Positions 600 to 26,831 of a stretch of DNA of 29,762 nt are shown here, piece after piece. The notes below the pieces were generated by a model that searched no databases, was not told the origin of the DNA, and saw nothing but the letters and a program-made list of their open reading frames with translations. The stretch lies in assembly GCA_029259185.1 (NCBI GenBank), contig JAPDJF010000016.1:1-29762 (forward strand), in the 5' to 3' direction. This DNA is from Hadesarchaea archaeon. GTDB taxonomy: Archaea > Hadarchaeota > Hadarchaeia > Hadarchaeales > WYZ-LMO6. Numbering within the stretch: the first letter of the stretch is position 1; every line of letters starts with the position of its first letter. Position numbers and translations under genes: made by a program.

Positions 600-706
600 T
601 CCTCTATTCGATTTAACACACATCTTGGCCCACCTACTGTAGCACTCTGCTCTTAACTATGTTGTGGGGTCTTTACCTTTATCCATCACCGAGTTAGTAA
701 CTAAGG

Positions 707-2866
707 ATGAGCGATATTCCAGAAGGTATGTATGGCGTGTCTTACGTAACGATAGCCCAGATATTCGCCTCTCTATCGGGAGCAGCTTTCTGGATCATTT
801 TTGCGATTATCGTCCATCCTCTAGCATACGGGCACTTGAGTTGGTTGGTATCGGTGGCCATGCTTATTTCCACTTTCTGTGTTTTTGGGATGGGAAAAGT
901 CATCGTATCTTACTATCCGAGAGAGAGGAACGAGGGACTCTTGAGCGAAGCGGTGTTGTTGGTGTTTGTCTCTAGCCTCTTCTTCGGGGGGTTAGTTTCT
1001 CTTTTTGTAGATATTTGGACTGGCCTGCTCGTAATCGGGTTTTCACTTTTCTCAATAGGGTTTCACATGAAATTAGCCAAGCGGGATTATGAGGGCTACA
1101 TGTGGGTTTGGGTAGGTGCACGCTCCCTCGCTTTCCTCCTACCCTTACTGGTCTATGAACTTCTAGGTCTTATCTCAGGTGTGGTGGTAGCACTCGCCGT
1201 CTCTTATTTCGTCTTCGGGTTATGGATTCTGAGATACATTACTAAGCCCAATTTCGGAAATCTAAAACCGAAAACGAAATTTGCGATGGGTGCGTGGTTG
1301 GCCGACTTGAGTGCGGTATCGATGAATTTCCTAGATAAGATCATCATAGGATTGCTCTTCGGCATGATGATGCTAGGTTTTTACCAGTTCGCGATCCGCA
1401 TTTTTCTTCTCTTCGCCGTTTTTCCTCAAATCATGTTTTTTTACCTCTTGCCTGAGAAATCCGCTGGGAGGAGAACCAAGCGGATCGAGGTAAATGCCAC
1501 GATCTTCTCGATCGGGCTAATGGGCATAATGCTCGTTTTCGCCTCTATCGTCATCCCCAGGTATTTTCCAAGTTTTAGTGATGGCGTTGAAGCCACTCAG
1601 ATCATGGGGTTCGCGCTGGTCCCTGCCACTATAGCCCAAATGAAGATCTCCGATCTCTACGCCAGAGGAAAGTCAAGTGTGGTTCTCGCTTCCTATGTCT
1701 CTGCATTAACGGTTGGGTTAACGGGAGTTGTCTCACTCGGTAAGCACTTCGGTCTCATTGGACTGGCCTCAAGCGTTTTCCTGACGCAATTGGCTCTAGC
1801 ACTTTCTGTATTCCTCTTCCCAAGGTTGACTGATGAGGACAAAAAACTAGCAGGGGGAACCCTCGGGGCGATAGTTCTGACAGCTTTAGTCATAAGTACC
1901 ATGAGTGTTCAGCCACTCACGATAGAGATCGTCGGCACCGAGGTGAAGGGTACGGGGCTTGCCATGGACACCACCGTCTCGATCATAGTGATAGATGAGA
2001 ATGTTGAGAAAGCTAAGGCCGCAATAAAGGCGGCCTACGATGAAATAAAAAGGATCGAAACGCTTATGTCAGCTGAAGATGAGGCGAGCGAGATATACCT
2101 GTTGAACCACAACGGGACCGCTTGGACCCAGCTTTCCTGTGAATCTATCTACATCTTAAAGAAAGCGATCGAGTACTCTGAGTTATCAGATGGTTACTTC
2201 GACCCAACGGTCAAACCCCTCGTGGATCTATGGATGAAGAAAACGAAGAAAACGGGGAGGATTCCCCGACCCGAAGAGCTCACCGAAGCCATGGAGCTAG
2301 TAGGGTGGAAAAACTTAGCAATAGACGAGAACAGGAAGATGGCGAGATTTCTTCAGGAGGGAATGCAAGTCACACTAGGGGCCATAGCTAAGGGATACGC
2401 TGTGGATCGAGGATACGAGATCCTAAAGGATTTTGGAGTTGAGTCTGGACTCGTGAACATAGGGGGCGACTTGAGGGGATTCGGTTCCCGTACGTGGAGA
2501 ATAGGGATCCAAGATCCTAGGGGAGAGGGGATATTGGAGGTGTTAGAACTTGAAAACTTCTCCATCGCGACTTCTGGTGACTACATGAGGATGTTCTTCA
2601 TAGGAAAACGGAGGATCCACCATCTCATAAACCCCAAAACGGGTGAACCAGCAACTGAGTGTATGAGTGTTACTGTCATCACCGAGAACTGTGTAGACGC
2701 GGATGCCCTCAGCACGGCTGTGTTCGTGATGGGTCCAACACGAGGGATAGAGCTACTAGATAACCTCTCTGATCGAGGAATGCTTAGTAAAGGGATGATC
2801 ATAGCCTCGGGAGGAGAGGTTCTGATTTCTCGATCTTGGAATTCCCTTCCCCACGTAGTGAACTAA
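707..2866 (+). CDS. apbE: Fusion of a Wzx/MOP-type (polysaccharide-flippase-like) multi-TM domain and a C-terminal FAD:protein FMN transferase (ApbE)
   Basis: aa ~1-375 contain about 12 hydrophobic helices with the Wzx-like DKIIIGLLFG...GFYQFA segment, then one further TM. ApbE motifs follow: AMDTTVSI, FDPTV, LGAIAKGYAVD, NIGGD, ATSGDY, HLINPKTG, ADALSTAVFVMG. Single 719-aa ORF. Confidence 0.88.
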   Translation: MSDIPEGMYGVSYVTIAQIFASLSGAAFWIIFAIIVHPLAYGHLSWLVSVAMLISTFCVFGMGKVIVSYYPRERNEGLLSEAVLLVFVSSLFFGGLVSLFVDIWTGLLVIGFSLFSIGFHMKLAKRDYEGYMWVWVGARSLAFLLPLLVYELLGLISGVVVALAVSYFVFGLWILRYITKPNFGNLKPKTKFAMGAWLADLSAVSMNFLDKIIIGLLFGMMMLGFYQFAIRIFLLFAVFPQIMFFYLLPEKSAGRRTKRIEVNATIFSIGLMGIMLVFASIVIPRYFPSFSDGVEATQIMGFALVPATIAQMKISDLYARGKSSVVLASYVSALTVGLTGVVSLGKHFGLIGLASSVFLTQLALALSVFLFPRLTDEDKKLAGGTLGAIVLTALVISTMSVQPLTIEIVGTEVKGTGLAMDTTVSIIVIDENVEKAKAAIKAAYDEIKRIETLMSAEDEASEIYLLNHNGTAWTQLSCESIYILKKAIEYSELSDGYFDPTVKPLVDLWMKKTKKTGRIPRPEELTEAMELVGWKNLAIDENRKMARFLQEGMQVTLGAIAKGYAVDRGYEILKDFGVESGLVNIGGDLRGFGSRTWRIGIQDPRGEGILEVLELENFSIATSGDYMRMFFIGKRRIHHLINPKTGEPATECMSVTVITENCVDADALSTAVFVMGPTRGIELLDNLSDRGMLSKGMIIASGGEVLISRSWNSLPHVVN

Positions 2867-3666
2867 GACGCGTGTGGAGTCGCTAGTGGCTTCGGAAACC
2901 TCAAAACCAAAACTTTACGTTTGCACGCTTCTACACACGCACCGCACGAGGTGCAAAGCGACTGGTCGATGACCGGGAGATTGTTTTCTATTTTTATCGC
3001 CCCCACCTGGCATGCTTTTTCACAGAGTTTGCAGGCGATGCATCCGTTTGGGCAGGCTGCCGCCACGACTTTTCCGGGTTCCGGTGAATTGCAACGGATT
3101 ATGACCTTTGCGTCCTTCGGAATCAACTTTATAACCCCTCTCGGACAAGCGTTCACACAGAGTCCACATCCGCGACATTTGTCCTCGTCAACCACAGGCG
3201 TGTTACCTCGAAGCTCGATGGCGCCGAAGGGGCATGCGCGCACGCAGTCTCCCAGCCCGATGCAGCCATACTTGCAAGCTAGGACTCCCTCACCCAAACT
3301 TGAAGCGGCAGAGCATGTCTTCTCTCCAACCCAATCGAATAACACTTTAGATCCACCAGCACATCTAACGTTGGCCACCATCCACCAGGTTTCTTTGACT
3401 TCAATCCCAAGCAATGCTCCAGCCCGCCTCCTTTCGTCTGCACCCATTAACCTGCAGTTCCCCAAGAGGGAAGGATCCTTTACTAGCGCCTCAGCGAAGT
3501 CGTCACACCCTCCGAATCCACACGCTCCACAGGAGGCGCCGGGAAGTAACTCTCTCACCCTTTCAACCCTCTCGTCCATCTGCACCGCGAACCTTTTGGA
3601 CATCACTACCAACAACGTGCTGAAAAAGAAACCAAGGGAGCCGAGTACTGCGATTTCTTCTATCAT
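2863..3666 (-). CDS. rnfB: Rnf complex subunit B (membrane-anchored polyferredoxin)
   Basis: Start MIEEIAVL at 3666 overlaps the rnfA stop (ATGA). N-terminal TM, LPGASCGACGFGGC and several CxxCxxCxxxC(P) motifs. Confidence 0.93.
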   Translation of the reverse strand: MIEEIAVLGSLGFFFSTLLVVMSKRFAVQMDERVERVRELLPGASCGACGFGGCDDFAEALVKDPSLLGNCRLMGADERRRAGALLGIEVKETWWMVANVRCAGGSKVLFDWVGEKTCSAASSLGEGVLACKYGCIGLGDCVRACPFGAIELRGNTPVVDEDKCRGCGLCVNACPRGVIKLIPKDAKVIIRCNSPEPGKVVAAACPNGCIACKLCEKACQVGAIKIENNLPVIDQSLCTSCGACVEACKRKVLVLRFPKPLATPHAS

Positions 3667-4244
3667 TCTACCATCCCGCTGAACCCTTGGAATGCGAGTG
3701 CTAGCAGGGACGCCGTGATGAAGGCTATGGGTAGACCCCGGAATGAAACCGGTTGCTCTGAGATCTCCAATCTTTCTCTCATCCCTGCCATCATAAATAG
3801 AGCCAGAGAGAAGCCCAAACCTGTGGCCAACCCGTTCACCGCTGAGGCCACGAAGGAATAGCTTTCGACCTCCACATTGATGAGGGTAACCCCCAGAATC
3901 GCACAATTCGTCGTGATGAGAGGGAGATAGATACCAAAGGCCCTGTATAAGTCGGGTAAGGTTTTTCGAATCACTATTTCCACTAACTGAACGAATGAGG
4001 CTATGACCAAGATGAAAGCCACGATTCGCATGTACTCTATTTCGAACGGAATAAGGAGGTACTCATAGATCAACCAAGTGAGAATAGAAGCGCAGCTCAT
4101 TACGAAGGTAACCGCTAGCCCCATCATCAACGCGTTCCTCACTCTCGTAGAAACTCCGAAGAATGGGCATAATCCAAGAAATTTGGTAAGCACGATGTTG
4201 TTGATGAACACCGCGGCTATCACTATACTCAGGAGATTTTCCAT
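3663..4244 (-). CDS. rnfA: Rnf complex subunit A
   Basis: NNIVLTKFLGLCPFFGVS and GIYLPLITTNCAILG motifs; about 6 TM. Confidence 0.96.
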   Translation of the reverse strand: MENLLSIVIAAVFINNIVLTKFLGLCPFFGVSTRVRNALMMGLAVTFVMSCASILTWLIYEYLLIPFEIEYMRIVAFILVIASFVQLVEIVIRKTLPDLYRAFGIYLPLITTNCAILGVTLINVEVESYSFVASAVNGLATGLGFSLALFMMAGMRERLEISEQPVSFRGLPIAFITASLLALAFQGFSGMVE

Positions 4245-4245
4245 C

Positions 4246-4839
4246 TCATACCACCCCCATCTTCTTCAACATCGCGAGTAGAATTCCCATAACTAGGAAA
4301 GCTCCGGGAGGCAGGATCATACCCGTCGCTGGTGAGGAAAGGATGAATGGAAGGAACTGATGGCCGAAGATCACTATTCCACCGGTTCCAAAGAACTCCC
4401 TTATCCCAGAGATGAGGACTATTATCAGCGCGAACCCAGCACTCATACCGGCGGTATCTAGGAGTGTTTCACCCAGTGGACGTTTAGAGGCAAAGGCTTC
4501 GGCTCTTCCCAAGATAATGCAGTTCACCGTGATGAGGGGGAGGAATATCCCAAGCTGTTCATACAGGGATGGTGAATACCCGTGGATGAATAGGTCTATT
4601 ATCGTTACGAAGCTGGCTATGATCACAATAAAAGTGGGGATCCTTACATCTTTTGGAATAAATCCCTTGATCGCAGAAATCAAGAGGTTAGAGAAAATGA
4701 GAACGAATGCGAAGCTGAAAGCCATACCTAGAGCGTTCTCAACTCTAGTGGTGATGGCGAGGGTAGGACATAGACCTAGTGCGAGTACGAGCACAGGGTT
4801 CTTTTTCACAAGACCCTTCGTGAACTCTTGCACCTTCAC
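4246..4839 (-). CDS. rnfE: Rnf complex subunit E
   Basis: NPVLVLALGLCPTLA, PLITVNCIILGRAEAFA and LPPGAF motifs. Confidence 0.96.
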   Translation of the reverse strand: MKVQEFTKGLVKKNPVLVLALGLCPTLAITTRVENALGMAFSFAFVLIFSNLLISAIKGFIPKDVRIPTFIVIIASFVTIIDLFIHGYSPSLYEQLGIFLPLITVNCIILGRAEAFASKRPLGETLLDTAGMSAGFALIIVLISGIREFFGTGGIVIFGHQFLPFILSSPATGMILPPGAFLVMGILLAMLKKMGVV

Positions 4840-5348
4840 AGACTAAACCTCCTAGCAAGTTCCTCCATTCCTTTGCGCACCGCTTCCACCACTGCACGGG
4901 AACTTATCGTTGCACCCGTGATGGCATCTATATCACCACCATCACTCTTCAGCCACACTCGTTCAAGTGTTTTTCCCTCGAACTGTTTAAGAAATTCGTC
5001 TTCTGCCACTCTTGATCCCAGTCCTGGGGTTTCGCTGTGAGAGACCACCCTCACCCCTCGGATCGTGTTGTCCACATAGATCCCCACTGCAACCTTCATT
5101 TTCCCCCCGTATCCAGCACCCTCAACTATCGCTGCGTACCCCACCAACTTTCCGTTTTCTATACACCTATAGTAGCCGTTCTCTTCCACGAAGCTTGCTG
5201 AGGGGAAGATCTCCGAAAGAACCTTATTTATCTCGGCCCGTTCGGCCTCCACTATCTTATCTTTTGTGAGTACATGCGTGATCCCTAAGAGTACACCCCA
5301 AACCAGACACGTGGCAGTCAATACGACCACGGGTTTAGCGCTCATCAC
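4836..5348 (-). CDS. rnfG: Rnf complex subunit G (FMN-binding)
   Basis: N-terminal TM, GYGG, ETPGLG and the flavinylation motif DAITGATISS. Confidence 0.95.
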   Translation of the reverse strand: MMSAKPVVVLTATCLVWGVLLGITHVLTKDKIVEAERAEINKVLSEIFPSASFVEENGYYRCIENGKLVGYAAIVEGAGYGGKMKVAVGIYVDNTIRGVRVVSHSETPGLGSRVAEDEFLKQFEGKTLERVWLKSDGGDIDAITGATISSRAVVEAVRKGMEELARRFSL

Positions 5349-6280
5349 TTCCCTCCCTCACGTTTCTTCATGACCCCATACACCTTAGGTCTCGTGAATC
5401 GGTCTATAAGCGGGGTAAATCCGTTCATTATCAAAATCGAGTAACACACGCCTTCAGGAAAACCACCATACATCCTTATCATCACCACGAGCAGGCCAGC
5501 ACCAACCCCGAAGACCACTCGCCCAGTTTTGGTTACCGGGCTCGTCACGTAATCCGTGGCCATGAAGAAAGCACCTAGGAAAAGTCCGCCGGCGAATATG
5601 TGGAAGAGGGGGGGCTCACCCAATAACCACATCAAAATTCCGACAGTCCCTATGTACGAGAGCGGGGTTCTCCAGTCGACGTACTTCATGGCTATTAGGA
5701 AAATGCCACCGATCAGGATAGCGAGCGCTGATGTTTCGCCTATACAACCAGCCACGTTTCCGAAGAAGAGGTTTTCCACCGGTGTATATCCATGTCCAGC
5801 ATGCCACTCTCCGAGAGGTGTGGCTGTGCTCACCCCATCGAAGGGTGAGACCCAAGTTGTCATTAAAGCAGGCCAAGATAAGGTTAAAAATGCCCTCCCC
5901 ACCAGAGCAGGATTAAAGATGTTCTGCCCTAACCCACCAAATGCGCACTTACCGATGAGGATGGCGAATGAGGATCCAACCACGGGCATCCAGATGGGGA
6001 CGGTCGGAGGAAGGCACAAAGCTAGGAGCAATCCTGTGATGACGGCACTTCCATCCATCGTAAACTTTTTGCCCATGGCTTTGTATCCGAGGAATTCTGA
6101 AATGACTGCTGAGGTAATGGAAGCCACCACAACGAGGAGGGCGTGTAGACCGAAGAGGTAAACCCCACTAGCAGTCGCGGGGATCAGGGCGATTACCACG
6201 GCTAGCATTATTCCTCTAACCGATACCTTATCCTTGATGTGGGGGGAAGTGGAGACTAATGGTTTGAATCCGGGGATCAT
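5345..6280 (-). CDS. rnfD: Rnf complex subunit D
   Basis: Start MIPGF at 6280 (ATGA overlap with rnfC). SPH, FGGLGQNIFNPALVGR, flavinylation motif DGVSTATPL, GCIGETS, FFMATDYVTSP. Confidence 0.95.
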   Translation of the reverse strand: MIPGFKPLVSTSPHIKDKVSVRGIMLAVVIALIPATASGVYLFGLHALLVVVASITSAVISEFLGYKAMGKKFTMDGSAVITGLLLALCLPPTVPIWMPVVGSSFAILIGKCAFGGLGQNIFNPALVGRAFLTLSWPALMTTWVSPFDGVSTATPLGEWHAGHGYTPVENLFFGNVAGCIGETSALAILIGGIFLIAMKYVDWRTPLSYIGTVGILMWLLGEPPLFHIFAGGLFLGAFFMATDYVTSPVTKTGRVVFGVGAGLLVVMIRMYGGFPEGVCYSILIMNGFTPLIDRFTRPKVYGVMKKREGGK

Positions 6281-7575
6281 TTCTTCAGCCTCCGCACAGC
6301 TTTTTTGCCTTCCCTTATCACGTGCACGATGGGGATCTTGGAAGGACAAACATAAGCACAGCAACCACATTCATCACAGCTCATTATGTTGTACTCAAGG
6401 CACATCTCCGGCTTTTTAGCTCGCGTGAATTTGACTAACATCGTCGGCATCAATCCCATAGGACAGACTTCGATGCATCTTCCACATCTTATACAAGGGG
6501 ATTCCTCTTCCTCTCTCACCCTTTCTTCACTGAAGACGAGGATGCAGTTGGTAGTTTTGACCACAGGGACATCCACATACTGGGCGAACCCCATCATCGG
6601 ACCCCCAGCTATAACTTTGCGCGTGTTTCCTACCGGTCCTCCGCATTCTTGGATGAGGGAAGAGAAAAGAGTCCCTATCCGAACAAGAAGGTTCTTCGAT
6701 TCCTTCACATCCCCAGTGATTGTGACTACCCTTTCCACCAAGGGGATGCCTTGGGTCACAGCTTCGTAGATGGCCTTTGTAGTACCCACGTTTTGGACAA
6801 CCACCCCTACATCGAATGGTAAGCCCCCCGCTGGTACCTCCCTTCCAAGGATGGCTTTGATTAGGTGTCTTTCATCGCCTTGGGGATATCTCGTCTTGAG
6901 CGGGACGACTCGGACGCTCTCCCCCCCTAGCCTATCCATATTGTCTATAGCATCCGGCTTATTGTCCTCGATCCCGATAAGGATGTTGTCCACCCCTAAA
7001 ATTTTGGCGATGATCTTAGCCCCCTCGATTATCTTCTCCCCTTCTTCTAGCATCAAACGATGGTCCGCCGTTATGTATGGCTCACATTCTGCACCGTTGA
7101 TGATAAGCGTGTCTATTCGTTTCTCTTTCGGAGGATTGAGTTTCACGTGGGTGGGAAATCCAGCCCCGCCCATACCCACGAGCCCACACTCTCTTATCTT
7201 TGATATCATTTCCTCCCTCGAGGCTTTCTCGGGATCCAGTCCTTTGGTTTCGATCCACTCGTCACCATCATCCGCTTCGATGACGATTGCGGGAACACGG
7301 TCCCCCGTCGGAAGGAGTTGAGTGGAAATCTCAGAAACCGTTCCGGAAATCGTGGAATGAACGGGAGCCGAGACGGCGGCTGGGGAGTCACCTATTTTTT
7401 GCCCTACTTTAACTTTGGCTCCCTTTTCCACTACAGGATCACAAGGGGCACCTATGTGTTGGCGAAGTGGAATGACCACTCGAGAAGGGAGTTTGGCTTT
7501 CTCTATTTTTTTGTCTGAGGTCAATTTGTTGGGGAGAGGATGTACTCCGCCTCTGAATCCTCTTTTCATTAACAT
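6277..7575 (-). CDS. rnfC: Rnf complex subunit C
   Basis: FRGGVHP, QHIGAP, GLVGMGGAGFPTHVK, NGAECEPYITAD, YPQGDE, GGPMMG and two CxxCxxCxxxCP clusters. Confidence 0.96.
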   Translation of the reverse strand: MLMKRGFRGGVHPLPNKLTSDKKIEKAKLPSRVVIPLRQHIGAPCDPVVEKGAKVKVGQKIGDSPAAVSAPVHSTISGTVSEISTQLLPTGDRVPAIVIEADDGDEWIETKGLDPEKASREEMISKIRECGLVGMGGAGFPTHVKLNPPKEKRIDTLIINGAECEPYITADHRLMLEEGEKIIEGAKIIAKILGVDNILIGIEDNKPDAIDNMDRLGGESVRVVPLKTRYPQGDERHLIKAILGREVPAGGLPFDVGVVVQNVGTTKAIYEAVTQGIPLVERVVTITGDVKESKNLLVRIGTLFSSLIQECGGPVGNTRKVIAGGPMMGFAQYVDVPVVKTTNCILVFSEERVREEEESPCIRCGRCIEVCPMGLMPTMLVKFTRAKKPEMCLEYNIMSCDECGCCAYVCPSKIPIVHVIREGKKAVRRLKK

Positions 7576-7682: not shown

Positions 7683-9152
7683 TCATCTCCAACTACAAGC
7701 TCTCCTACCTTGAACCATCTCCCAATATCCCAAGTTGTGGAGGCATCCCGGATCTGCTCCTTGGATGTTTCCGAAGTATCCGTACGCTCTAGCCCTGCAG
7801 CCCCCGCATATGTAGACGTGCTCGCAGCTTCCGCACCCTTCGAACTTCTCCCTCTCCCTGAGTTTCTTCAGGACTTCTGAGTTACACCATATTTCTCGAA
7901 GGCTTTGTTCTTTTAGGTTTCCTATTTTAATGGGGAGAAACACACAGGGCTCAACGTCTCCGTTCGGTTCTAAACTCAAGTAGAGTCTCCCAGCTCCACA
8001 TCCGCCCAAAAATTCCGACAGTGCTTTTGTCTTTCCTCTCATCGCTTTGATCATACCCTCATTGGTGAAATGAGTCGCCACAGTGGGTCCATAAACTGCT
8101 TGATATGAAACAACGGCGTATTGGGGAGCTGTGGAATATGTTATGAGTTTTTTATCTTCACTGACCAAGTTCGAATAGAGATATCTGAGTAGGTCCCATC
8201 TCTCTTGAGGAGATAGATCCTCTTCCACGATTTCTTTCCCCTTCCCAACTGGTACATAATTGAACACTACCATTCGTTTGGCTCCGAGTTCATCGGCCAC
8301 AAAATCCATAAGACTTGGAAACTCGTAAAAATTGAGACGCGTGACGGTAACAGCTACGCCCGTGTCGATTCCCTCGGCAACGCAGTTCTTTATTCCCTCA
8401 CAGGTGCGTTTCCACGCACCGTTTACCCCTCTGAACTCATCGTGAGTGCTCTGGAACCCGTCTAGGGAAATCTCAACATAGTCAAAAACCTCCTTAATTT
8501 TTCTCGCCACCTCCTTGGAGATCAGGGTCCCATTGGTGGCGAGGGAGACGTAGAATCCTCTAGACTTAGCATGGGCGGCGATCTCATACACATCCTTTCT
8601 CATGAGGGGTTCTCCACCCGAAAAGGCTATGGCAACTACCCCCGCATCGGCTAGCTCATCCACCACAGCTCTCCTCTCCTCTGTACTCAACTCTTGGGAC
8701 ACGTCCACATCTGGGGATGCGCTCTCATAACAATGCTTACAGCGCAGATTACACAAGCGAGTGTAGTTCCACACTATGAGGAAGGGTGCCATCCCGACGA
8801 ATGGTCTCTTCACCCCGAAGTGTTCTATTCCTTCCAACACGTTTACGATACCTTTCCGGACTATTGGGTCTTTGATGGCTCTCATCATAACTTCTCGGCT
8901 CACACCGAACGATTCACTTCCTTTATCGATGAAAAACTTCACGATCGAAAAGGCGAGCTGGTCTCTCCAGCTCAGCTTACTGAAATCTCCTTCGCCAACA
9001 TAACAACGTAAAACTTTATCCAATCTGCTTTCTCCGTTCGATTTTCCGGTTACGAGTTTGAGCAATTTGCGTGAGAGGGGGTTTCCTAGCCACCTTTCGA
9101 CAGTCCCCACCACTGCTTCGTGTCTCTCGGCATCGCCCTCTCGAGCACCCAC
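7683..9152 (-). CDS. Radical SAM/SPASM-domain protein with long N-terminal extension; candidate GMGT synthase (Gms)-like lipid-modifying enzyme
   Basis: CNLRCKHC, FSGGEPL and TNG motifs. C-terminal SPASM: CGAG...PC...CGSCEHVYICGGCRARA...DPGC. The Gms call rests on family resemblance and lipid-gene context only. Confidence 0.8.
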   Translation of the reverse strand: MGAREGDAERHEAVVGTVERWLGNPLSRKLLKLVTGKSNGESRLDKVLRCYVGEGDFSKLSWRDQLAFSIVKFFIDKGSESFGVSREVMMRAIKDPIVRKGIVNVLEGIEHFGVKRPFVGMAPFLIVWNYTRLCNLRCKHCYESASPDVDVSQELSTEERRAVVDELADAGVVAIAFSGGEPLMRKDVYEIAAHAKSRGFYVSLATNGTLISKEVARKIKEVFDYVEISLDGFQSTHDEFRGVNGAWKRTCEGIKNCVAEGIDTGVAVTVTRLNFYEFPSLMDFVADELGAKRMVVFNYVPVGKGKEIVEEDLSPQERWDLLRYLYSNLVSEDKKLITYSTAPQYAVVSYQAVYGPTVATHFTNEGMIKAMRGKTKALSEFLGGCGAGRLYLSLEPNGDVEPCVFLPIKIGNLKEQSLREIWCNSEVLKKLREREKFEGCGSCEHVYICGGCRARAYGYFGNIQGADPGCLHNLGYWEMVQGRRACSWR

Positions 9153-20565: not shown

Positions 20566-21210
20566 ATGGCTCAAGAGAGTGGGAGAGTAAATACCAAGAG
20601 AAGGATAAAGGCGGTGCTATTCGATCTAGATGGGGTTCTGATAGACTCCATTGATGCTTGGTACGTAGCCCTAAACGAAACTCTCCGAAAATTCGGGAAG
20701 AAAAAGATAGGGAAAGGAGAATATGTGAAGAAATGCTGGGGGTTTAGTCTTTCCCGCAATTTGAAAAGATTTGGACTCGGGAGGAAAGCTGTGGAGTACT
20801 GTCTCTCTAAGTATAAAGCCCACCTGGATGAGGTCAAGGTCATTCCGGGAGCACATGAGGTACTTGAGAGATTGAAAAGAAGGTTTAGGCTTGCAGTGGT
20901 CACGAATACTCCTTCCTCTGCAGTGAAACGTATCCTTGAGAGCTTTGGACTTGAAAAATACTTCGAGACGGTTATCACCGGAGACGACGTAAGGAAGACG
21001 AAACCCAACCCTGAGGCAGTACGAAAGGCATGCAGGAGGTTAGGAGTGCACCCTTTTGAGACCATACTCGTCGGAGATACGAAGAGTGATGTACTCGCAG
21101 GAAGAAACGCAAAGGGTGTGGTGATAGGAGTAGGAGTGGATGGAGATTTTAGAATCGAAAAATTATCTCAGCTACCCGAACTGTTGAATCGAATAAGCCG
21201 ATCCTATTGA
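20566..21210 (+). CDS. HAD-superfamily hydrolase (phosphoglycolate phosphatase/PpaX-like, C1 cap)
   Basis: FDLDGVLIDS, VVTN, KPNP and VGDTKSDVLAG motifs. Start taken at ATG 20566 because the longer ORF overlaps cofD. Confidence 0.9.
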   Translation: MAQESGRVNTKRRIKAVLFDLDGVLIDSIDAWYVALNETLRKFGKKKIGKGEYVKKCWGFSLSRNLKRFGLGRKAVEYCLSKYKAHLDEVKVIPGAHEVLERLKRRFRLAVVTNTPSSAVKRILESFGLEKYFETVITGDDVRKTKPNPEAVRKACRRLGVHPFETILVGDTKSDVLAGRNAKGVVIGVGVDGDFRIEKLSQLPELLNRISRSY

Positions 21211-21965
21211 CCAAAGAGATCTTGTTCTCTTGGTCTCACCAATTGTTTGGCTTCTCCTACCCCTCTCTCGTATGGGGCTTCCTTTATTACCACGACAGGT
21301 GTACTCTCATTTGCCTCCCCCATCACCAAAACGGCCGCCGCTGCTAGCGCATCTGCCGAGGCGATCACGGTGCTCTCAAGCCTCTTATTGTACAAATCTT
21401 TTCTCCCCTGTAAGTTCAAAAGTGGACGCATCCCCGCCACTCCTATGGCTACCCCCACACACCCAACCCTGAAGGCCCTCCCTTGCGTATCCGAAATGAT
21501 CACCGCCACATCCACTCCCAGCAACTCTTTGATCCGTCTTCTGATCCTTCGGGCACTCGAATCTGGATCTGCTGGTAGTAAAGTCACCCGTCCACGCCCC
21601 ACGTTAGAGCGATCGATCCCCGCATTGGCGCATATGAATCCGTGGGTTGTCCGGGTTATCAATACGTGAGATGCTCTGAGTATCTCGCTGGATTCTCTGA
21701 GGATAACCTCTACCACCCGTGCATCCTTCCCAGAAGCCCGAGCCAACCTCTTGGCTAGTGTGGACGGTTTGATCTCTTTGAGTTCTACGACCCTTCCCTC
21801 AGCTTTGGAAACAATAGTCTGGGCCACCACCACTACATCCCCGTGTTGGAGGGAAACTCTGTTGCGCTTCAGGGCCTCCACCACGAGTTCACCGATATCA
21901 TCTCCCTCTCTTACGAGTGGGATACCACGAAGAGGTACTAACTTCATCCAGCGAACTCTCCCCAA
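21204..21965 (-). CDS. cofE: Coenzyme F420-0:L-glutamate ligase (canonical type)
   Basis: IPLVREGDD, VSKAEGR, CANAGIDRSN, LLPADPD, SDTQGRAFR and MGEANESTP. Start may be 21947. Confidence 0.92.
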   Translation of the reverse strand: MGRVRWMKLVPLRGIPLVREGDDIGELVVEALKRNRVSLQHGDVVVVAQTIVSKAEGRVVELKEIKPSTLAKRLARASGKDARVVEVILRESSEILRASHVLITRTTHGFICANAGIDRSNVGRGRVTLLPADPDSSARRIRRRIKELLGVDVAVIISDTQGRAFRVGCVGVAIGVAGMRPLLNLQGRKDLYNKRLESTVIASADALAAAAVLVMGEANESTPVVVIKEAPYERGVGEAKQLVRPREQDLFGQ

Positions 21966-22033: not shown

Positions 22034-22798
22034 GTGGCGAACAGGGTTATGCTTATAGGGGTCAGAACCCCCCTGATAAAGCCGGGTGACGATTTACCCA
22101 AGACAATACTCCGAGCAACGAAGCGCGTAGGAGGGTTGAGGGATGGGGATGTGTTGGTTATCGCTTCCAAAGTCGTGGCGGTGGCTCAGGGGAGGATCGT
22201 TAAACTCTCTAGAATCAAAGTCTCCAGATCAGCGAGGAAGTTATCCAAAGAATCTGAGTTGGATCCCACTTTGGTGGAACTCGTTCTTCGAGAGTCAGAT
22301 GATATCGTAAGCGTTTCAAAGCACGCTATCCTCACTGTGGTGAGGGGTGTTCCTTTCGTGAACGCTGGGATAGACCTTTCCAATGCCCCGAAAGGACATG
22401 CTATCTTGCTACCTTCAAGACCCAACGAGGTTGCGGAAGAGCTTCGCGAATCGATCTCAAATAAAGGAAAGAAGATAGGGGTAATCATAGCAGACAGCAC
22501 GGTAAGGCCACTCAGGCTAGGGACGGTAGGTCAAGCCATAGGGATAGCGGGGTTAACGTCCGTTATCGACCTACGTGGAAAAAAAGATTTGTTTGGTAAT
22601 CCCCTCAGAGTAACTAGGAGGTGTGTGGCCGATCAAATAGCTACCTCTGCTGAACTTTTGATGGGGGAGGCTGGTGAGAAGAGTCCTGTAGTCATCGTCA
22701 GGGGTCTCAAAGATATTTTGGGAAAACCCACATTAGAACCAAAAGTAAAACCTAGAGACTGTGTTTATTTCAAAGTATTTTACCAAAAAGATCAATAA
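22034..22798 (+). CDS. Second, divergent CofE-family gamma-glutamyl ligase
   Basis: TPLIKPGDDL, NAGIDLSN, ADSTVRPLRLGTVG, DLFGNPL and LMGEAGEKSPVVIVRG. Motifs differ from the neighbouring cofE. Confidence 0.85.
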   Translation: MANRVMLIGVRTPLIKPGDDLPKTILRATKRVGGLRDGDVLVIASKVVAVAQGRIVKLSRIKVSRSARKLSKESELDPTLVELVLRESDDIVSVSKHAILTVVRGVPFVNAGIDLSNAPKGHAILLPSRPNEVAEELRESISNKGKKIGVIIADSTVRPLRLGTVGQAIGIAGLTSVIDLRGKKDLFGNPLRVTRRCVADQIATSAELLMGEAGEKSPVVIVRGLKDILGKPTLEPKVKPRDCVYFKVFYQKDQ

Positions 22799-24645: not shown

Positions 24646-24734
24646 GGGCCCGTAGTCCAGCGGTCAAGAAGTGAAACTTGACAAACGCCACCCTTACAAG
24701 GTGGAGATCGAGGGTTCGAATCCCTCCGGGCCCA
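24646..24734 (+). tRNA. tRNA-Val(TAC) with a 16-nt intron (24669-24684) in the D-arm
   Basis: Acceptor stem GGGCCCG/CGGGCCC-A; anticodon arm CCACC-CTTACAA-GGTGG; T arm GAGGG-TTCGAAT-CCCTC. Removing AAGTGAAACTTGACAA restores the D-stem GTC/GAC. CCA is not encoded. Confidence 0.95.
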
Positions 24735-24985
24735 CTTCTTGGTTCAGAACTTTTCGGGGAACAAAGTGCTTGGTGACAAAGGGAAGCATATACCCCTTGG
24801 AAAACGTGGTATGAGATCGGGGCATGGTGGATACACGTTTGCGCAGGCTGGGAACTTCCGTGAGGCTCAGGGTTGGCCCCCAGGGTGCTCACCCGGCCTA
24901 GGAGTCACTCTCCTCGGAAGAAACGGTTCAAGCTTCAGGTGCTGGCTAAACTTAAACGCTGGCGGACGGAAGTAGGAGGGGGAAG

Positions 24986-25735
24986 GTGGGGAGAAGAACT
25001 CTCGTCCTGATCTCGGTCGCTCTCGCGATCGGCCTCCTCGCTTGCCTGTTCGTGAGGGTAACGCTTGCCTCGGGTCCCAGGTGGAGGGTGGCTCGCGCTC
25101 CCATCCTCGGCGGGGGTTTCTTCCAGTGCCTCCAGGCTCTGGGTCCGGATAGCGTATTCTTCGCGGGTCCCGATTCCGCCGGGAGGGAAGCTCTCTGGAT
25201 GTGGGACGGGAGGGAGTTCGTGCGCTTGGCCGAGATGCCATGTGTGTCCTCCCCATATGGTTTCTACATGGTCTCCCCCACGGAGGGGTGGGTCGGTAAC
25301 TGCGAGTCCCTCTGGAGGTGGGACGGAGAGGGGTGGACCGAGTTCGAGAACCCGTTGGGAATTTACAAGGAGAACTACGATTGCGGTCCCATCGTGTGGA
25401 TCCAGATGCTCTCCTCGAGCGAGGGGTGGGCGATAGCTAGGCTCTGGGCCGCGAGGTGGCCTATGGAGGAGTGGGTGGGGGGCGCGTTCCTCCGCTGGAA
25501 CGGTTCCTCCTGGGAGGTGGCTCAGATGACGGAGGAGAAGTGCTGGTGGGGGGACATGCTTTCGTCCGAGGATGGATGGGCGGTGGGAGACAATGGAACC
25601 ATCCTGCACTGGGACGGAAGGGAGTGGTCCGTGGTCCCTTCCCCAGTCGACTGCTGGCTCTGGTCCGTCGACATGCTCTCCCCCACGGAGGGATGGGCGG
25701 TTTCCTTCGGAAGGGGGGTGTTGAGATACGGGTGA
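24986..25735 (+). CDS. Exported or membrane-anchored Trp-rich repeat (beta-propeller-like, WD40/YVTN/BNR-like) protein 1
   Basis: GTG start after GGAGGGGG; N-terminal hydrophobic helix; repeats of DMLSxxEGWAVG...LxWDGxxW. Confidence 0.75.
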   Translation: MGRRTLVLISVALAIGLLACLFVRVTLASGPRWRVARAPILGGGFFQCLQALGPDSVFFAGPDSAGREALWMWDGREFVRLAEMPCVSSPYGFYMVSPTEGWVGNCESLWRWDGEGWTEFENPLGIYKENYDCGPIVWIQMLSSSEGWAIARLWAARWPMEEWVGGAFLRWNGSSWEVAQMTEEKCWWGDMLSSEDGWAVGDNGTILHWDGREWSVVPSPVDCWLWSVDMLSPTEGWAVSFGRGVLRYG

Positions 25736-25739
25736 GGGC

Positions 25740-26831
25740 ATGAGGGGGCTTGTGGCTCTCCCGGTGCTCGTGCTCGTGCTGGGGTCGGCGCTGCCCGTGG
25801 CGGCCTCCGGAGGGCAAAGGCGAGAGCTGATGGGGAAAATCGTCGTGTTGCTCGTTGTCGCCGTTGCGGTTGGTTCGGCTGGATATTTTGTTTTGGTTTC
25901 AACCCAAACGCACCCCTGCTGGAGGAGGGTGGATGCCCCATTCGAACCTTGGACCCCGGTGCGCCCTTCGGTCTGGGTCTTATCCCCTAACGAGGTTTGG
26001 ATATTCGGAAAAACGTATATGGAGAACACCTCGTCGGAGGGTATATGGAAGTTCGATGGGCGAGAGTTTTCCTTCGTGGTCGGCTTACCGGGTTGGGTCT
26101 CTGCTTCTTACATATGCTCTGAAAATGAGATGTGGTTAGGGTGCTGTGACCTTCATTCTCGTGAACTGTTTTTATGTCGTTGGGATGGAGAAACATGGAC
26201 AAAATACATACCAACTCTTCCAAAAAAAGACAATATCTGTGGTCTAATTTTTGGGATCGACATGCTTTCTTCCGATGAGGGTTGGGCAGTAATTACCTAT
26301 TTCCGATACACAAAAGACCGTTACCCTCCTGTTCAGCTAGGAGGAAGCGATTTTTTACACTGGGACGGGGAAAAGTGGCTCGTTGTTCCCAGTCCAATAG
26401 AAGGATCGCTGCGCTGGGTTGACATGCTTTCGCCGGAGGAAGGTTGGGCGGTGGGAGACAATATCCTGTACTGGGACGGAAGGGAGTGGTCCGTGGTCCC
26501 TTGTCCAAGCTCAGGCATTCTCTCACACATCGACATGCTCTCTTCTGATGAGGGTTGGGTAGTCGGAGACAATATCCTGTACTGGGACGGGGAAAAGTGG
26601 TCCGTTGTTCCCAGTCCAATAGAAGGATCGCTACGCTGGGTTGACATGCTTTCGCCGGAGGATGGATGGGCGGTGGGAGACAATGGAACCATCCTCCACT
26701 GGGACGGGGAGAGGTGGTCCGTTGTTCCCTGTCCGATGCATGTAGACCTGGCGTATATCGATATGGTATCCTCGAAGGAGGGCTGGGCAGTCAGCGACTC
26801 TGAAATCCTTAAATACGGTGAGGGTTCTTGA
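25740..26831 (+). CDS. Exported or membrane-anchored Trp-rich repeat (beta-propeller-like) protein 2
   Basis: Same repeat family, with about 37-aa units in the C-terminal half. Two tandem signal-like segments; the true start may be ATG 25830. Confidence 0.78.
   Translation: MRGLVALPVLVLVLGSALPVAASGGQRRELMGKIVVLLVVAVAVGSAGYFVLVSTQTHPCWRRVDAPFEPWTPVRPSVWVLSPNEVWIFGKTYMENTSSEGIWKFDGREFSFVVGLPGWVSASYICSENEMWLGCCDLHSRELFLCRWDGETWTKYIPTLPKKDNICGLIFGIDMLSSDEGWAVITYFRYTKDRYPPVQLGGSDFLHWDGEKWLVVPSPIEGSLRWVDMLSPEEGWAVGDNILYWDGREWSVVPCPSSGILSHIDMLSSDEGWVVGDNILYWDGEKWSVVPSPIEGSLRWVDMLSPEDGWAVGDNGTILHWDGERWSVVPCPMHVDLAYIDMVSSKEGWAVSDSEILKYGEGS
26360..26735 (+). repeat. Intragenic tandem repeats, about 111-bp unit (222-bp higher-order period)
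   Basis: CTGGGACGGGGAAAAGTGG..GTTGTTCCCAGTCCAATAGAAGGATCGCT.CGCTGGGTTGACATGCTTTCGCCGGAGGA occurs at 26360 and 26582. Related units start at 26471 and about 26699. Confidence 0.85.

Follow-up and report, generated by a model that had tools for sequence, protein, structure and literature searches.

We describe a gene of a Hadesarchaea archaeon in which a complete transporter core of the MOP superfamily is joined, through one additional transmembrane (TM) helix, to an intact ApbE domain, i.e., the FAD:protein FMN transferase (FAD, flavin adenine dinucleotide; FMN, flavin mononucleotide), and which stands tail-to-tail with an rnf operon. The gene lies on contig JAPDJF010000016.1 of assembly GCA_029259185.1, whose positions 1 to 29,762 constitute the window, the whole stretch of DNA analysed; the host genome amounts to 1.27 Mb in 54 contigs, is 94.9% complete, and has its closest loci in entries titled Hadarchaeota. 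ApbE works outside the cytoplasm yet needs cytoplasmic FAD, and to our knowledge the route of FAD to ApbE has been established in two cases only: Shewanella, where the MATE transporter Bfe serves, and the ECF systems of the Listeria type. A conserved gene fusion is among the strongest genomic hints of a shared pathway. The reading that we favour, with a probability of about 0.45, is that the N-terminal MOP domain is an active transporter re-purposed from oligosaccharide-flippase-like proteins to export cytoplasmic FAD to ApbE; while the architecture, the predicted topology, the intact ApbE domain and the linkage to Rnf can be read from the data given below, we infer from them the transport itself, its substrate and its coupling ion. 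The fusion gene and its parts are as follows.

707..2866, + strand: whole fusion gene, MOP-type transporter plus 13th TM helix (TM13) plus ApbE, 719 aa (open reading frame (ORF) list, translation)
707..1840, + strand: 12-TM MOP-superfamily core (aa 1-378), of a compact "oligosaccharide flippase-like" family (AF2 model, VIA-align, Foldseek, profile search)
1334..1339, + strand: D210-K211 in TM7, candidate transport-cycle motif (15/15 fused sequences; in the wider family D 42/42, K 38/42)
1397..1399, + strand: R231 in TM8 (R in 15/15 fused sequences; Q in 41/42 of the wider family and in two close stand-alone proteins)
1835..1903, + strand: TM13 (aa 377-399), outward tether (DSSP helix)
1964..2767, + strand: ApbE FAD:protein FMN transferase domain (aa 420-687; Pfam PF02424)

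We read the gene as encoding the maturation enzyme of Rnf in this archaeon, with an unusual make-up of two parts. FAD, which is a dinucleotide linked by pyrophosphate, would pass from the cytoplasm into the inward-open cavity of the MOP domain, which would then turn outward, presumably driven by H+ or Na+, although this energy source is a guess made after other MOP transporters. At the outer face, FAD would be let go and bound by ApbE on its flexible TM13 tether, and ApbE would move FMN to RnfG and RnfD, with AMP staying outside. In a cell bounded by an S-layer only, such tethering would limit the loss of FAD.

Architecture and topology of the fusion protein

The ORF at 707-2866 (+) is one unbroken frame of 719 codons. 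The AlphaFold model of the whole protein, built with 22 homologues, has a mean pLDDT of 83.7, and that of aa 1-405 has a pLDDT of 86.9 and a pTM of 0.86, with its first six helices at residues 6-35, 38-59, 76-100, 103-124, 128-153 and 156-177 and the remaining ones at 187-218, 220-252, 258-286, 291-319, 323-348, 350-374 and 377-399. We compared the aa 1-405 model with 48,161 PDB representatives by VIA-align, and ran Foldseek as a separate search. In VIA-align, model residues 1-378 superpose on entire 12-TM MOP transporters of two 6-helix lobes: the best scores were obtained with the MATE transporter VcmN (6idp; Z 31.6, 375 residues aligned, root-mean-square deviation (rmsd) 3.7), other MATEs (Z 25-31) and the lipid III flippase WzxE (9g95; Z 30.2, 371 aligned), followed by MurJ (Z 19-20; 6cc4, 19.7), and the best unrelated fold reached Z 8.3. 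Foldseek ranked WzxE first for the transporter half (E 3e-8). By this comparison, aa 1-378 form a complete MOP core, for which structural scores leave MATE and Wzx tied, and the helix at 377-399 is an additional, 13th one. An earlier note, made from the letters alone, had read the gene as a single ORF of 12 TM helices, a 13th helix and ApbE and had assigned the N-terminal part to the MOP fold; the unbroken frame, the modelled helices and the Pfam match described below bear out the former point, and the Z scores of 31.6-30.2 to MATE and WzxE the latter.

Both termini of MOP cores are cytoplasmic, and therefore TM13 is expected to carry the chain to the outside. The distribution of positive charges leads to the same placement: across the 22 homologues, Lys plus Arg residues average 21.2 (range 16-25) in the predicted cytoplasmic loops and 2.7 (range 1-7) in the predicted outside loops, and the fusion protein itself has 21 and 3, respectively. 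This loop bias places ApbE outside, in agreement with the topology proposed in the earlier note. TM13 corresponds, judging from sequence comparison, to the ordinary signal anchor of ApbE, because the nearest unfused ApbEs have one N-terminal TM helix followed by the same mature start. These unfused proteins, which carry the labels ANME-1, Methanosarcinales and "Halobacteria", are 50-53% identical to aa 413-711.

The ApbE half is complete and is the only ApbE match in this genome. PF02424 matches it with E 9.8e-85 and 284.7 bits, against a cut-off of 25.6, over 1-258 of the 266 profile positions; for PRK10461, an equivalog of NCBIfam, the score is 109.5 bits where 498 are required, and the domain is therefore not an equivalog of the E. 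coli type. Its closest structural counterpart was 1VRM (T. maritima TM1553), with Foldseek E 1.1e-17, a TM-score on the target of 0.86 and rmsd 3.0, with which it shares 34% identity, and phmmer connects the two with E 4e-54; FmnB, Ftp and V. cholerae ApbE have TM-scores of 0.78-0.83 to the ApbE half in Foldseek. S623, H639 and D666 align to Ser241, His257 and Asp285 of V. cholerae ApbE, where the His column was fixed by comparing structure 6nxi with the H257G mutant 6nxj, and all three are invariant in the 22 homologues. The available parts of PMC12052999 describe these three V. cholerae residues as conserved active-site residues of ApbE and FAD as its flavin donor, so that the domain can be called intact, as had been claimed.

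Recurrence of the fusion and its link to Rnf

In a search of 5.8 billion protein clusters, 26 proteins, counting the query itself, had E-values of 0.001 or lower. Twenty-one homologues (P0002-P0022) have 695-757 aa, at least 94% query coverage and 45-65% identity, and it is therefore the fused gene that relatives carry, not two unlinked genes. The other four entries (P0023-P0026; 457-600 aa) are cut or, in the case of P0025 and P0026, diverge after the start of ApbE. They resemble separate N-terminal genes, and this is what could be said for regarding the long ORF as an assembly or frameshift artefact joining two genes. P0025 and P0026 were accordingly considered as stand-alone N-domains and rejected, since both continue into TM13 and the first part of ApbE before diverging in the manner of frameshifted copies of the fusion. 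A 28.7-kb contig from another sample covers positions 600-3000 of the window with one substitution and zero indels, and a contig piece from another study covers 1782-1951, i.e., TM12, TM13 and the linker, ending shortly before ApbE begins; this evidence on the junction consists of assembled contigs, not of raw reads. The near-full-length homologues, the bridging of the junction without an indel and the single-frame fusion in 15 of 41 related genomes described below effectively refute the artefact, whose probability we regard as practically nil, and the junction proposed in the earlier note holds. One fusion copy, that of locus L003 (G034:C51:3627-5750), has one in-frame TGA, for which a sequencing error, decay to a pseudogene and recoding are all conceivable.

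The relationship among ApbE domains was examined with a quick maximum-likelihood tree of 44 sequences, 20 fused and 24 single-domain, rooted at the midpoint only; the single-domain rows were drawn from about 58 loci after most near-duplicate gammaproteobacterial rows and contig-cut loci had been excluded. All fused ApbE domains fall on one side of a branch with SH-aLRT 98, the fused group adjoins four ApbEs of the ANME-1/Methanosarcinales type with weak support (81), and the fused sequences with bacterial labels nest among those of Hadarchaeota. Such a tree agrees with a single fusion, after which the module was passed on intact, in a direction that the tree does not prove. The N-domains of archaeal and bacterial-labelled carriers remain 36-48% identical, and the fusion has apparently been kept intact through transfers into three bacterial phyla.

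In the window, the stop of the fusion gene (2864-2866) overlaps that of rnfB (2863-2865, minus strand), and the genes beyond it follow on the minus strand in the order rnfB-A-E-G-D-C.

2863..3666, - strand: rnfB, convergent with the fusion gene (Fer4 and FeS Pfam matches)
3663-4244, - strand: rnfA (PF02508, E 1e-61)
4246-4839, - strand: rnfE (PF02508, E 1e-61)
4836..5348, - strand: rnfG, with an N-terminal TM helix and flavinylation motif DAITGAT (aa 141-147; nt 4908-4928; PF04205)
5345..6370, - strand: rnfD, with flavinylation motif STAT in GVSTATP (aa 179-185; nt 5816-5836; PF03116, E 1e-118)
6277..7575, - strand: rnfC (RnfC_N, Complex1_51K, SLBB and Fer4 matches)

The overlapping stops and the two motifs agree with the convergence on rnfB and the flavinylation targets pointed out in the earlier note. 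RnfG is the sole match to FMN_bind (PF04205) across the genome. Very probably, the ApbE domain acts on the external side of the membrane and moves FMN from FAD to the Thr of DAITGAT in RnfG and to the Thr of STAT in RnfD, which are candidate targets for the Mg-dependent FMN transfer characteristic of ApbE. Two starts in this operon need revision. The listed rnfB ORF extends to 3906 and overlaps rnfA by 244 nt; its true start is likely to be Met81 at nt 3666, just past the end of rnfA, because RnfB matches of relatives start at query residues 80-88. The listed rnfD ORF begins far upstream and overlaps rnfC by 94 nt, and its start is probably an internal Met.

We next counted the gene in 41 genomes of the same order, the host genome included. 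The fusion is present in 15, in two of them cut by contig ends and in one with the in-frame TGA, and RnfD is present in 16, namely these 15 and G011; the fusion accordingly occurs in 15/16 RnfD-positive and 0/25 RnfD-negative genomes. G011, which is 85% complete, has a 17-bit match to aa 5-50 only and no ApbE match. All ApbE matches above 80 bits in this sample lie in the frame of the fusion, and eight other genomes have sub-threshold ApbE matches of 17-24 bits in frames of 254-280 aa. In ten of eleven loci of relatives, the fusion gene converges on rnfB as in the window, and in the remaining one (L013) it is located directly upstream of rnfG on the same strand.

The fusion was also found in metagenome-assembled genomes (MAGs) labelled Dehalococcoidia, Synergistaceae/Synergistales, Acetothermia and Micrarchaeota, and RnfD/NqrB matches were present in all five bacterial-labelled carrier genomes tested. 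A Synergistaceae-labelled contig has the fusion gene downstream of rnfCDGEA on the same strand, and in Dehalococcoidia contigs it stands beside FabF, an acyl-CoA-ligase-like gene and, in two contigs, Mrp antiporter genes. Among 61 relatives of one Dehalococcoidia carrier, seven have the fusion, exactly the same seven have RnfD, and none of the 54 RnfD-negative genomes has the fusion; together with the counts in Hadarchaeota, this upholds the expected co-occurrence of the fusion with rnf in two lineages. In two Dehalococcoidia-labelled loci, L115 (3583-5912, genome G067) and L116 (2488-4775, genome G063), RnfC-/RnfD-like genes were observed 3.6 kb upstream of the fusion gene, and no rnfG, rnfE or rnfA match was found within the 11-13 kb fetched; these genes may belong to an incomplete system resembling Rnf/Nqr, such as those listed in the available parts of PMC8238504.

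Ancestry and possible cargo of the transporter half

A profile of the N-domain was searched against 1.84 billion representatives and found 2184 proteins at E up to 0.001, 258 of them at E up to 1e-30. The top ranks were occupied by a handful of fusion-sized proteins (685-796 aa), the next ones by three close stand-alone proteins of a type of about 385 aa (P0034, P0035 and P0036; 354-421 bits), and below them ranked more than 100 others that also stand alone (375-395 aa; 175-265 bits). Matches of the stand-alone proteins span profile positions 3-370, the 12-TM core minus TM13; members of this family have Polysacc_synt and Polysacc_synt_3 matches and are named "O-antigen/teichoic acid export" or "lipopolysaccharide biosynthesis", and one is from an Odinarchaeia MAG. 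Likewise, the nearest ESM Atlas clusters are compact proteins of the "oligosaccharide flippase family" or of lipopolysaccharide biosynthesis, archaeal where taxa are known. The protein of the window matches Polysacc_synt over aa 10-98 with 24.3 bits, under the cut-off of 28.2; the genome search gave the fusion 25.9 bits, or 30.8 with neighbouring same-frame matches added, and precomputed PF01943 and PF13440 matches exist for fusion homologues, the stand-alone relatives reaching 31.6-45.5 bits. Four further proteins related to the compact MOP transporters, P0080 (922 aa), P0090 (911 aa), P0103 (629 aa) and P0157 (1292 aa), have long extra regions, in which there was no Pfam match at E up to 0.001; they are putative further fusions of this compact family.

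To see which residues the fused clade has retained or altered, we compared 15 fused with 42 wider-family sequences and considered only positions with a conservation of 90% or more among the fused sequences that were also clearly shared or clade-specific. This gave 32 positions, of which 24 recur in 70% or more of the wider family, including D210-K211 (TM7), Y226, the Y246-L248-P249 stretch, F287-P288 and P306. The other eight, Q18, H37, A40, W46, W135, L175, R231 and F245, are specific to the fused clade, and the clade-specific changes fall in TM1, TM2, TM5 and TM8. The retention of family-wide residues would argue against decay into a mere anchor, and the gained Arg and aromatic side chains would be in keeping with a ligand that is both anionic and aromatic, as FAD is.

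These observations have to be set against the possibility that the domain has kept a Wzx-type flippase activity on a lipid-linked oligosaccharide or some other lipid-pyrophosphate, with no flavin meaning in the fusion. In its favour are the Polysacc_synt and Polysacc_synt_3 matches as the best sequence families, the first rank of WzxE in Foldseek, the names of the nearest ESM Atlas clusters and the gene context of distant relatives described below. The contrary evidence is that the domain follows RnfD in both lineages counted above, whereas a housekeeping glycan flippase should not follow Rnf; that neither the window nor the examined loci of relatives have glycan genes (sugar-nucleotide, glycosyltransferase) adjoining the fusion; and that the clade-specific changes fall in the four helices just named. 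The genome has, moreover, a separate canonical flippase-like gene on contig C4, of 508 aa, with Polysacc_synt and MatE matches, the latter being the only one in the genome. The earlier note had preferred FAD export and had kept a lipid flippase as the alternative because the gene is divergent from a supposed thioesterase gene, tes; by Pfam this neighbour is a radical-SAM protein with an HMPTM zinc ribbon, so the identification was wrong and the alternative loses its one argument in that note. Continued flipping appears unlikely to us.

A second alternative is that the MOP domain serves only as a polytopic anchor or scaffold, perhaps holding ApbE by Rnf during assembly, and that FAD exits by another route. 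What speaks for it is that nothing but the type of anchor sets the sister ApbEs apart, that Rnf-bearing relatives without the domain exist, and that the geometry from channel to active site is not seen, TM13 and the linker being of low confidence. An anchor of 380 residues and 12 helices would, however, be costly where one helix suffices; the 24 family-wide positions, D210-K211 and the YLLPE region among them, are kept; and both the level of N-domain identity among carriers and the intactness of the fusion through its apparent transfers, given above, stand against it. We therefore hold the anchor to be doubtful, although it deserves serious weighing. Finally, the domain might carry another small molecule tied to the biogenesis or operation of Rnf (riboflavin, FMN, AMP for removal, or an ion). 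MOP transporters are chemically versatile, MATE and Wzx are about equal in the model scores, and Mrp antiporter genes accompany the fusion in the two Dehalococcoidia-labelled contigs; no result points to another ligand, and with FAD as the donor of ApbE (available parts of PMC12052999), FAD is the sole substrate that would explain the strict fusion with ApbE. A cargo of this kind is quite improbable.

In favour of the reading as a whole, there are three distinct rnf linkages of the fusion gene: convergent on rnfB, upstream of rnfG, and downstream of rnfCDGEA. For a working transporter, we count that the whole 12-TM core is kept and that sister ApbEs manage with a single TM anchor. A change of substrate is suggested by the RnfD-negative relatives without a homologue of the domain, by the separate canonical flippase-like gene and by the neighbour of one close stand-alone relative. 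The context of stand-alone relatives was taken from ten metagenome loci gathered from a 6-row alignment, with neighbours scanned in L098, L100, L101, L103, L104, L105 and L107. At L100, the close unfused relative is divergent beside a 187-aa membrane-anchored FMN_bind protein with the motif GITGAT. The minus strand of L100 (147-1482) has this FMN_bind gene and a gene for a 237-aa multi-TM protein without a Pfam match, with RecO downstream; these possibly make up a small bacterial cluster for electron transfer that depends on flavinylation.

Several points weigh against FAD export and are gathered here. By sequence the domain looks flippase-like and outside the MATE family, with no match to MatE (PF01554) in the window protein at E up to 1. 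Distant relatives (28-33% identity) were found at five loci (L103-L107), and at the four of these that were scanned (L103, L104, L105 and L107) they are flanked by genes for UDP-glucose dehydrogenase, epimerase, glycosyltransferase or sulfotransferase; the ancestral job was therefore probably the flipping of lipid-linked glycans. By these sequence relationships, the domain comes from a family with the look of glycan flippases, in which ties to flavoproteins are confined to the fused clade and perhaps to the unfused proteins closest to it. Even for the latter, the FMN_bind context is a single case, because L101 and L102 are the same gene as L100 without the upstream part, and the close relative at L098 has no FMN_bind or other informative neighbour. 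TM13 and the linker have pLDDT values of only 49-69, and a fixed docking of ApbE over the mouth of the transporter is therefore not predicted. The counts link the gene as a whole to Rnf-type complexes and, taken alone, do not connect its transporter half with flavin: an ApbE of any kind should accompany its targets, so co-occurrence says nothing specific on this half, and related genomes are non-independent samples. In five Rnf genomes with unfused sister ApbEs (ANME-1/Methanosarcinales-labelled), there was no homologue of the N-domain (one 22.7-bit match); these sister lineages run Rnf with a plain anchored ApbE, and the MOP domain is therefore not generally required. The interpretation given in the earlier note thus stands as to architecture, topology and the link to Rnf; for the export step itself the evidence is circumstantial, consisting of the conserved transport motifs, the one telling context of an unfused relative and the precedent of Bfe and YeeO among MATE flavin exporters.

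Gene neighbourhood, known systems and meaning

Upstream of the fusion gene, the window begins with the divergent gene mentioned above.

3-623, - strand, running off the window end: radical-SAM protein with an HMPTM-type N-terminal zinc ribbon (PF23545, PF04055)

A 489-aa radical-SAM/SPASM protein is encoded at 7683-9152 (-), directly upstream of rnfC on the same strand. The remainder of the window contains archaeal lipid genes (geranylgeranyl reductase (GGR), geranylgeranylglyceryl phosphate (GGGP) synthase and a glycerol-1-phosphate (G1P)-dehydrogenase-like gene) and F420 biosynthesis genes. CofE (F420-0:gamma-glutamyl ligase, PF01996) is represented by two divergent paralogues, 21204-21965 (-) and 22034-22798 (+), inside the cofC/G/H/D cluster. 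The sole Rfam match in the window is a tRNA at 24662-24734, and it is followed, within 24662-26831, by two tandem genes at 24986-25735 and 25740-26831 (+), which encode signal-anchored proteins of repeats of about 37 residues, "WDG..W..VPSP....VDMLS..EGWAVGD" (TRF period 111 nt). These two genes account for a local G+C spike of 63%, and their proteins have weak PSII_BNR and DUF2510 matches and nothing stronger.

The fusion protein can be compared with several known systems. With ApbE/Ftp/FmnB proteins (PF02424; 1VRM, V. cholerae 6NXI, Listeria FmnB 7ESA) its C-terminal 300 residues share the fold (TM-score 0.79-0.86), the catalytic Ser/His/Asp, the extracytoplasmic domain and RnfG/RnfD targets with a motif of the D-x-x-[ST]-G-A-[ST] type; those described in the available parts of PMC12052999 are lipoproteins, signal-anchored or cytosolic, whereas the fusion protein is anchored by helix 13, at the end of a complete 12-TM transporter. 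Bfe (SO_0702) of Shewanella oneidensis and YeeO of E. coli are, like the N-domain, 12-TM members of the MOP superfamily, and its fold matches MATE structures at Z 31; compared by family and fold only, they differ in being separate MATE proteins, while the domain of the window has no MatE match, is compact and Polysacc_synt-like, and is fused. Bfe is a MATE transporter that exports FAD in Shewanella, into the compartment in which ApbE acts, and its loss there removes extracellular flavins (PMC3551548, available parts); for Vibrio, it has been suggested that Bfe and YeeO supply ApbE (PMC5655446, available parts). Closest in sequence family are the Wzx/PST flippases (WzxE, 9G95) and the compact archaeal family of about 380 aa (PF01943 and PF13440 in relatives), with which the motifs D-K (TM7), YQ (TM8), YLLPE and FP are held in common; unlike these, the fused clade is found outside glycan clusters, follows Rnf, and has Q231R, extra Trp/Phe/His residues, TM13 and ApbE.

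The same proposed task, the supply of FAD to an extracytoplasmic ApbE-like enzyme, belongs in Listeria monocytogenes to EetB-FmnA-EcfA/A', whose genes often adjoin apbE (PMC9973259, available parts). That system has an unrelated fold and energy source, the ATPase of an energy-coupling factor (ECF) transporter, and no match to EetB (PF07456) was found in the genome of the window (94.9% complete) at E up to 0.01. In the ApbE-fumarate reductase of trypanosomatids (PMC12052999, available parts), ApbE is likewise in one chain with a functional partner, but that partner is itself the flavinylation target and the enzyme stays inside the cell, whereas in the present fusion ApbE faces outward and is joined to a transporter. 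A published description of a flippase- or MATE-ApbE fusion was not found in the ApbE, flavin-exporter and Hadarchaeota-Rnf literature, which was covered by titles and the beginnings of abstracts, with subscription journals and supplements outside the scope; the available parts of PMC12052999 hold no passage on a flippase, export or fusion of this sort, "fused" there concerning fumarate reductase, and a word search of the available parts of PMC8238504 and PMC11334425 gave no mention of it. The gene is a combination of a known enzyme with a known transporter fold that is undescribed and informative.

The widest form of the proposal, which we put forward tentatively, is that a flippase-type MOP transporter has been converted to a dedicated FAD exporter and joined to the transferase. 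It would be the first single-polypeptide machine that exports and flavinylates, and would represent a new family of prokaryotic flavin exporters, whose unfused type, that of P0034-P0036, would serve other extracytoplasmic flavinylation systems; the module would have moved whole from Hadarchaeota-like archaea into Synergistota, Chloroflexota and Bipolaricaulota. If the transporter half is only an anchor, the finding shrinks to an unusual tethering of ApbE. The fusion singles out one family of compact proteins as candidates for flavin export in archaea and in several phyla of bacteria, and the fusion protein is a construct in which export and flavinylation are testable together.

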